A DNA stretch of 47,326 bases from Escherichia phage Lambda imm434. Positions 19,650 to 21,973 of this stretch are shown here, in pieces. The DNA lies in sequence record OM418626.1; one strand, given 5' to 3'. The position numbers and the translations under genes were made by a program. Positions within the stretch are counted from its first letter, which is position 1; each line of letters starts with the position of its first letter. The notes under the pieces were generated by a model. That model saw only the letters and a program-made list of their open reading frames with translations. It was not told the DNA's origin and ran no database searches.

Positions 19650-20855
19650 ATGGCAGTAAAGATTTCAGGAGTCCTGAAAGACGGCACAGGAAAACCGGTA
19701 CAGAACTGCACCATTCAGCTGAAAGCCAGACGTAACAGCACCACGGTGGTGGTGAACACGGTGGGCTCAGAGAATCCGGATGAAGCCGGGCGTTACAGCA
19801 TGGATGTGGAGTACGGTCAGTACAGTGTCATCCTGCAGGTTGACGGTTTTCCACCATCGCACGCCGGGACCATCACCGTGTATGAAGATTCACAACCGGG
19901 GACGCTGAATGATTTTCTCTGTGCCATGACGGAGGATGATGCCCGGCCGGAGGTGCTGCGTCGTCTTGAACTGATGGTGGAAGAGGTGGCGCGTAACGCG
20001 TCCGTGGTGGCACAGAGTACGGCAGACGCGAAGAAATCAGCCGGCGATGCCAGTGCATCAGCTGCTCAGGTCGCGGCCCTTGTGACTGATGCAACTGACT
20101 CAGCACGCGCCGCCAGCACGTCCGCCGGACAGGCTGCATCGTCAGCTCAGGAAGCGTCCTCCGGCGCAGAAGCGGCATCAGCAAAGGCCACTGAAGCGGA
20201 AAAAAGTGCCGCAGCCGCAGAGTCCTCAAAAAACGCGGCGGCCACCAGTGCCGGTGCGGCGAAAACGTCAGAAACGAATGCTGCAGCGTCACAACAATCA
20301 GCCGCCACGTCTGCCTCCACCGCGGCCACGAAAGCGTCAGAGGCCGCCACTTCAGCACGAGATGCGGTGGCCTCAAAAGAGGCAGCAAAATCATCAGAAA
20401 CGAACGCATCATCAAGTGCCGGTCGTGCAGCTTCCTCGGCAACGGCGGCAGAAAATTCTGCCAGGGCGGCAAAAACGTCCGAGACGAATGCCAGGTCATC
20501 TGAAACAGCAGCGGAACGGAGCGCCTCTGCCGCGGCAGACGCAAAAACAGCGGCGGCGGGGAGTGCGTCAACGGCATCCACGAAGGCGACAGAGGCTGCG
20601 GGAAGTGCGGTATCAGCATCGCAGAGCAAAAGTGCGGCAGAAGCGGCGGCAATACGTGCAGAAAATTCGGCAAAACGTGCAGAAGATATAGCTTCAGCTG
20701 TCGCGCTTGAGGATGCGGACACAACGAGAAAGGGGATAGTGCAGCTCAGCAGTGCAACCAACAGCACGTCTGAAACGCTTGCTGCAACGCCAAAGGCGGT
20801 TAAGGTGGTAATGGATGAAACGAACAGAAAAGCCCACTGGACAGTCCGGCACTGA
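19650..20855 (+). CDS. stf: Side tail fibre Stf, N-terminal segment (orf-401), separated from the C-terminal segment by a frameshift
   Basis: ATG at 19650 within ORF 19644..20855; Ala/Ser/Thr-rich repetitive shaft sequence; next segment is in a different frame. Confidence 0.8.
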
Positions 20856-21028
20856 CCGGAACGCCAACAGCACCAACCGCGCTCAGGGGAACAAACAATA
20901 CCCAGATTGCGAACACCGCTTTTGTACTGGCCGCGATTGCAGATGTTATCGACGCGTCACCTGACGCACTGAATACGCTGAATGAACTGGCCGCAGCGCT
21001 CGGGAATGATCCAGATTTTGCTACCACC

Positions 21029-21973
21029 ATGACTAACGCGCTTGCGGGTAAACAACCGAAGAATGCGACACTGACGGCGCTGGCAGGGCTTTCCACGGCG
21101 AAAAATAAATTACCGTATTTTGCGGAAAATGATGCCGCCAGCCTGACTGAACTGACTCAGGTTGGCAGGGATATTCTGGCAAAAAATTCCGTTGCAGATG
21201 TTCTTGAATACCTTGGGGCCGGTGAGAATTCGGCCTTTCCGGCAGGTGCGCCGATCCCGTGGCCATCAGATATCGTTCCGTCTGGCTACGTCCTGATGCA
21301 GGGGCAGGCGTTTGACAAATCAGCCTACCCAAAACTTGCTGTCGCGTATCCATCGGGTGTGCTTCCTGATATGCGAGGCTGGACAATCAAGGGGAAACCC
21401 GCCAGCGGTCGTGCTGTATTGTCTCAGGAACAGGATGGAATTAAGTCGCACACCCACAGTGCCAGTGCATCCGGTACGGATTTGGGGACGAAAACCACAT
21501 CGTCGTTTGATTACGGGACGAAAACAACAGGCAGTTTCGATTACGGCACCAAATCGACGAATAACACGGGGGCTCATGCTCACAGTCTGAGCGGTTCAAC
21601 AGGGGCCGCGGGTGCTCATGCCCACACAAGTGGTTTAAGGATGAACAGTTCTGGCTGGAGTCAGTATGGAACAGCAACCATTACAGGAAGTTTATCCACA
21701 GTTAAAGGAACCAGCACACAGGGTATTGCTTATTTATCGAAAACGGACAGTCAGGGCAGCCACAGTCACTCATTGTCCGGTACAGCCGTGAGTGCCGGTG
21801 CACATGCGCATACAGTTGGTATTGGTGCGCACCAGCATCCGGTTGTTATCGGTGCTCATGCCCATTCTTTCAGTATTGGTTCACACGGACACACCATCAC
21901 CGTTAACGCTGCGGGTAACGCGGAAAACACCGTCAAAAACATTGCATTTAACTATATTGTGAGGCTTGCATAA
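21029..21973 (+). CDS. stf: Side tail fibre Stf, C-terminal segment (orf-314) with HxH repeat tip domain
   Basis: ORF 21029..21973 (314 aa) containing repeated GAHAH / SHSHS / GSHGH motifs. Confidence 0.8.

Follow-up and report, generated by a model that had tools for sequence, protein, structure and literature searches.

The stf region of the window (the whole stretch of DNA that was analysed, 47,326 bp in length) contains two long open reading frames (ORFs) on the plus strand, followed directly by a third (Table 1). The upstream ORF, orf-401, extends over 19650-20855 and encodes 401 aa when counted from the ATG at 19650; the program-made ORF list gives a longer version of 403 aa (19644-20855), which begins at an in-frame GTG at 19644 upstream of this ATG. 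The downstream ORF, orf-314, encodes 314 aa and lies in a different frame, as 19650 mod 3 is 0 and 21029 mod 3 is 2. Read backwards, the orf-314 frame remains open to 20819, so that the two open frames overlap by 37 nt at 20819-20855. The third ORF, tfa, encodes 194 aa and lies directly downstream of orf-314. The coordinates and differing frames of the first two ORFs agree with the preliminary description of this region, which had also placed a change of frame within approximately 20800-21030; the site was found at 20833-20835.

Table 1. Features of the stf-tfa region, in window coordinates
Feature	Position	Strand	Evidence
stf codons 1-395 in the native frame: collar domain, Ala/Ser/Thr-rich shaft, Phage_fiber_2 repeat	19650-20834	+	Pfam; PDB 9e7m/9mgh
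Frameshift site, CCC in place of CCCC	20833-20835	+	Sole indel relative to KT232076, LC730321, the EMG2 prophage and R1
Out-of-frame tail of orf-401, His-Trp-Thr-Val-Arg-His and TGA	20835-20855	+	Frame-0 codons, translation
stf codons without a start codon or annotation, in the orf-314 frame	20836-21028	+	Approximately 78-80% identity to P2 H, continuous with orf-314
orf-314, the C-terminal 314 stf codons: Collar domain, T4 gp37-like tip	21029-21973	+	Pfam; PDB 2xgf
tfa (orf-194), tail-fibre assembly chaperone	21973-22557	+	Pfam Caudo_TAP, E 1.5e-43; ATG overlaps the stf stop (TAATG)

A whole-window comparison with lambda showed that window positions 1-35586 correspond to lambda 1-35587 and positions 37071-47326 to lambda 38247-48502, while the intervening segment (35587-37070) matches the phage 434 immunity region (OL657226) at 99.8% identity. 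Since lambda arms flank a 434 immunity segment, the 47,326-bp window represents a laboratory hybrid of the lambda imm434 type, and its coordinates are shared with lambda record J02459 through the tail genes. Further differences from J02459 were observed at positions 137/138, 14266, 25662, 31016, 31966, 34934 and 44442; the window has one G less near 138 and one more at 14266, between L and K, and there are also five arm substitutions and, within R, a C against the T of lambda 45618. At codon 1111 of gene J (position 18835), near the C-terminal receptor-binding end of the protein, the window has T (Tyr, TAT) where G is found in the prophages of EMG2 and R1, so that laboratory lambda differs from natural lambda at this position. 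Between lom and the start of stf there is a strong terminator-like hairpin (19612-19633; nine pairs, seven of them G-C, followed by TTTTTT), so that expression of stf and tfa would depend on antiterminated late transcription through it. J02459 also annotates orf206b (206 aa, 20147-20767, minus strand), which is antisense to the Ala/Ser-rich shaft and is most likely not a gene but a by-product of GCN-rich coding on the opposite strand.

The region from 19400 to 22700 was compared with phage records using megablast, which returned phage lambda at 99.9-100% identity, with J02459 at the same coordinates and annotating the three ORFs as orf-401, orf-314 and orf-194. The near-identical records fell into those that span 3301 bases and some that span 3302. 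Base-by-base alignment located the lesion as a single C absent from the run at 20833-20835, which reads CCC in the window and CCCC in intact alleles. The extra C is present in KT232076 (lambda from K-12 CV601) and LC730321, and also in the lambda prophage of wild-type K-12 EMG2 and the prophage of cattle isolate R1; alignment with intact prophage stf genes, the check that had been proposed for placing the indel, thus puts one C at 20833-20835 and refines the single-base change of the preliminary description to a one-base deletion in a C run. KT232076 annotates a single 2325-nt 'tail fiber protein' over the region, the stf stretch of LC730321 is unannotated yet translates as one open frame of 774 codons, and RefSeq carries one 774-codon CDS (WP_001407643.1) for the intact form in EMG2 and R1. 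In frame 0 the window reads ...AGA AAA GCC CAC TGG ACA GTC CGG CAC TGA, so that 395 native codons are followed by six aberrant ones and the premature stop of orf-401 at 20853-20855. A functional lambda-type Stf requires an uninterrupted frame of approximately 774 codons; here the frame is interrupted by the change at 20833-20835 and by this stop, and the stf region is therefore a pseudogene of the Stf family rather than a working member. Tandem Repeats Finder reported only three arrays, all of them short (20637-20686, 21485-21553 and 21796-21865) and none at the junction, and internal tandem repeats were rejected as the cause of the indel.

The CCC form is shared by J02459, PV340536, HK629, HK630 and strain BH212. 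Lambda record PV340536 is identical to the window over 18900-23200, and over the same interval J02459 differs from it only by two substitutions away from the junction (20661 and 22444). At both positions the window has G and J02459 has A (orf-401 E338K and tfa E158K), and since all other fetched lambda records agree with the window, J02459 is the outlier. The GenBank entry for HK630 carries the note 'missing C (relative to sequence of Ur-lambda) causes frameshift mutation and disruption of stf', and RefSeq marks the 401-nt form of BH212 as 'frameshifted'. The extra base found in HK629 and HK630 is a T at 19632 and is unrelated to the stf lesion. The arrangement is thus that of laboratory lambda, as had been recognised from the ORFs, on the identity with PV340536, the J02459 record and the HK630 note, with the refinement that the phage is a lambda/434-immunity hybrid and not plain lambda.

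Position 21714, which encodes residue 689 within the receptor-binding tip, also varies among these records. It is G (Ser689 once the frame is repaired) in all frameshifted records examined (the window, J02459, PV340536, HK629, HK630 and BH212) and A (Asn689) in all intact alleles examined (KT232076, LC730321, EMG2 and R1). The G may have arisen as a neutral change once the gene was inactive, or may do no more than mark the lineage. As HK629 and HK630, recorded as Hong Kong isolates, both carry the exact laboratory stf lesion together with the linked 21714 G, their sequences suggest that they share ancestry or have recombined with laboratory lambda, and not that the allele arose independently in nature.

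The distribution of the two forms in bacterial genomes was assessed using the 60 top-ranking matches of 20640-21040 among E. coli genomes. A span of 401 nt, identical to the window, was found in 21 of these 60: BH212 and 20 laboratory strains of the B or BL21 type, the majority with DE3 in their names. The remaining 39 span 402 nt and are K-12 lambda-positive lineages or field isolates, including EMG2, WG1, NCM3722, J53 and CV601 as well as isolates from cattle, chicken meat and mouse gut; within this group the extra base was placed in the C run for EMG2 and R1. BH212 (NZ_CP029239) is an E. coli strain of human source whose lambda prophage carries the laboratory stf frameshift together with a frameshift called in J, and it may be a laboratory-derived lysogen or an assembly with homopolymer errors.

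When one C was inserted in silico, the region encoded a 774-aa protein with no internal stop. This repaired protein differs from those of KT232076, EMG2 and R1 only at residue 689 (S689N; Ser in the window, Asn in those) and from that of LC730321 at two residues (K686V and S689N). Independent evidence came from an unrelated phage of the P2 family, whose tail fibre H matched the window by tblastn (E 1.7e-70) in one frame over 20712-20834 and in another over 20825-21226, the match switching frame at 20825-20834. Against the repaired protein the H match is gapless across the junction, with 137 of 172 residues identical (80%). As the match to this P2-family fibre extends to either side of the junction and switches frame at the lesion, the orf-401/orf-314 pattern is not a product of chance. 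A 179-aa junction peptide likewise found one-piece matches in P2-like phages and two-piece matches in lambda-type records. Judged from sequence, the approximately 70 codons upstream of the orf-314 ATG are real fibre-coding sequence, and since fibre homology runs through them, the ATG at 21029 is not the native start. These results bear out the earlier proposal that the two ORFs are halves of one stf; the finding that was to overturn it, unrelated genes with independent starts and no continuous homology to a single fibre, is not what was observed.

The domain architecture of the repaired protein is divided between the two halves, which also indicates that they make up one fibre. The tail-anchoring N-terminal domain phage_tail_N (PF08400) covers residues 1-134 (E 2.7e-75), residues 1-94 match the Ur-lambda Stf collar structure (PDB 9e7m/9mgh), and a Phage_fiber_2 repeat at residues 358-396 ends at the lesion. 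The C-terminal half contains Collar and Phage_fiber domains, and its residues 518-774 match the T4 gp37 tip (PDB 2xgf) with an E value of 7.9e-73. The Ala/Ser/Thr-rich shaft and His-repeat tip that had been noticed in the translations were both recovered, with 67.7% A+S+T in residues 116-350 and eight H-x-H motifs between repaired residues 601 and 748. The anchoring domain, the tip and a Caudo_TAP assembly gene directly downstream with a stop/start overlap are all present, but the gp37-like tip with its Collar domain and H-x-H repeats is encoded in the downstream frame only.

The closest known counterpart is the lambda PaPa stf allele (orf-401/orf-314; J02459, NC_001416), which has the same coordinates, missing C, premature stop and downstream tfa, and from which the window differs, besides the substitutions at 20661 and 22444, only in genomic background, through the phage 434 immunity region. 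What defines the PaPa allele is that it has one C less than Ur-lambda where orf-401 and orf-314 meet, and this is what the window shows. The intact Stf of Ur-lambda and of the K-12 EMG2 and WG1 prophages (WP_001407643.1, 774 aa; PDB 9E7M/9MGH) has the same domain order and tfa partner, and its gene is identical in DNA sequence except at two positions: it has CCCC, giving one ORF, and Asn689 where the frame of the window would give Ser689. The H proteins of P2 and its relatives share the level of identity given above over the 172 junction-spanning residues and, as for stf, are followed by a tail-fibre assembly gene, but P2 H is a myovirus protein of 673 aa in a single intact ORF whose N- and C-terminal parts are unlike those of Stf. 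The tip of T4 gp37 resembles the C-terminal 257 residues of Stf, H-x-H repeats included, and both proteins bind OmpC (PMC12617516). T4 gp37 differs in forming the distal half-fibre of a contractile-tail phage, with chaperones gp57A and gp38, whereas the lambda copy of this tip is probably not translated here.

Taken together, the region is almost certainly the stf gene of laboratory (PaPa-type) lambda with one C deleted, in a phage whose virions would have no side fibres and would adsorb through J and LamB only; the sequence holds nothing that speaks against this reading. In the original 1982 annotation orf-401 and orf-314 were separate genes, and their independent expression would be in keeping with the two CDSs annotated in J02459 and several other records and with the ATG at which orf-314 starts. 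This is so improbable as to be negligible, as the homology to P2 H and to intact stf is continuous through the gap, including 70 codons before the orf-314 ATG, and insertion of a single C joins the two ORFs to give the protein of the K-12 lysogens; the continuous single-frame homology in relatives refutes it. Independent expression of orf-314 was also rejected because no Shine-Dalgarno-like purine run precedes the ATG at 21029 and the promoter scan found two promoter-like sites, against 2.5 expected in shuffled sequence, none of them upstream of 21029 on the plus strand. It is also exceedingly unlikely that the missing C reflects faulty sequencing or assembly and that the stf of this phage is really intact. 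Homopolymer runs are typical sites of such errors, and in BH212, which carries the same lesion, J is called as frameshifted too; but CCC recurs in the independently sequenced J02459, PV340536, HK629, HK630 and many DE3 lysogens, and the lesion is always linked to 21714 G, which is absent from every intact allele examined, and on these two grounds an error was rejected. The backbone is, moreover, that of a laboratory 434-immunity hybrid, for which descent from PaPa-type stocks is expected.

Two further explanations would leave the split gene with some function. Programmed -1 ribosomal frameshifting is known from lambda G/GT, and a shift of -1 is what would be needed here, as low-level slippage within the 37-nt overlap would produce trace full-length Stf with an Ala395Ser change. 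The overlap contains one A_AAA_G (20828-20832) at which tRNA-Lys could re-pair, and tetramers of this type cause weak slippage in E. coli. Against this, there is no X_XXY_YYZ heptamer in 20816-20855, where the tetramer is the only such site, and the two-frame layout is not conserved: in relatives and in natural lambda prophages one frame encodes the whole fibre, so that nothing would have selected for slippage. A programmed frameshift as a designed feature was rejected on the same two grounds. Laboratory lambda virions are without Stf by mass spectrometry (PMC10721106) and without side fibres (PMC12617516), and slippage of this kind is very unlikely; if it did occur, a small fraction of laboratory lambda virions would bear a side fibre. 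It is unlikely to a slightly lesser degree, although still a very small chance, that the truncated orf-401 product assembles as a tail collar with some function without the tip. The product does retain the residues that make up the dodecameric collar of Ur-lambda (1-94), along with most of the shaft, but trimers of this fibre family need the C-terminal region and Tfa in order to fold, and mass spectrometry and cryo-EM of laboratory lambda revealed neither Stf nor a collar (PMC10721106).

The gene was inactivated when one C was deleted from the four-C run at 20833-20836 (intact-allele numbering), and translation from the ATG at 19650 now runs through 395 native and six wrong codons to the TGA at 20853-20855. 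The truncated product keeps the tail-attachment domain and shaft and loses 379 C-terminal residues, among them those of the trimeric receptor-binding tip. The 1.1 kb that follow (20836-21973) would owe their open frame solely to the recent origin of the lesion; the first ATG in this stretch (21029), annotated as the start of orf-314, has no ribosome-binding site before it and is not the native start, and orf-314 is probably not translated to any useful extent. Virions would consequently lack side fibres, and binding of the central fibre J to LamB would be their sole route of adsorption, whereas the intact ancestor Ur-lambda is first tethered to OmpC by four Stf trimers and adsorbs 10-30 times faster.

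The lesion, its position, the continuity of homology and the domain architecture were observed directly in this analysis; the lack of side fibres, the role of OmpC as receptor and the effect on adsorption are taken from the literature and would apply here by way of stocks that carry the identical lesion. In laboratory lambda, as compared with Ur-lambda, the frameshift prevents synthesis of the side fibres (PMC12617516), and PMC9659904 is counted among the literature that supports this reading of stf. Cryo-EM of Ur-lambda shows four side fibres, each of them a trimer of Stf, with a dodecameric N-terminal collar as their anchor; these fibres bind OmpC and speed adsorption approximately 10-30 fold with the titre unchanged (PMC12617516). 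J and LamB alone are enough for infection (PMC12617516; PMC10721106), and mass spectrometry detected neither Stf nor Tfa in laboratory lambda virions, in which no collar was found by mass spectrometry or cryo-EM (PMC10721106). Growth in agar repeatedly selects stf mutants, as 19 of 21 large-plaque isolates were mutated in stf and 15 of these 19 isolates had frameshifts (PMC2762979), a selection that explains the origin of the laboratory lineage.

The split stf gene is already known and is textbook knowledge of laboratory lambda. Hendrix and Duda reportedly described in 1992 that laboratory lambda has no side fibres and explained the stf lesion, and the explanation has been built on many times since, so that the lesion described here is not a discovery. 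For annotation, orf-401 and orf-314 are best treated as a single pseudogene, stf. For work on adsorption, host range or plaque size with this phage, the OmpC-binding side fibres of natural lambda would, by analogy with stocks that carry the same lesion, have to be regarded as absent.
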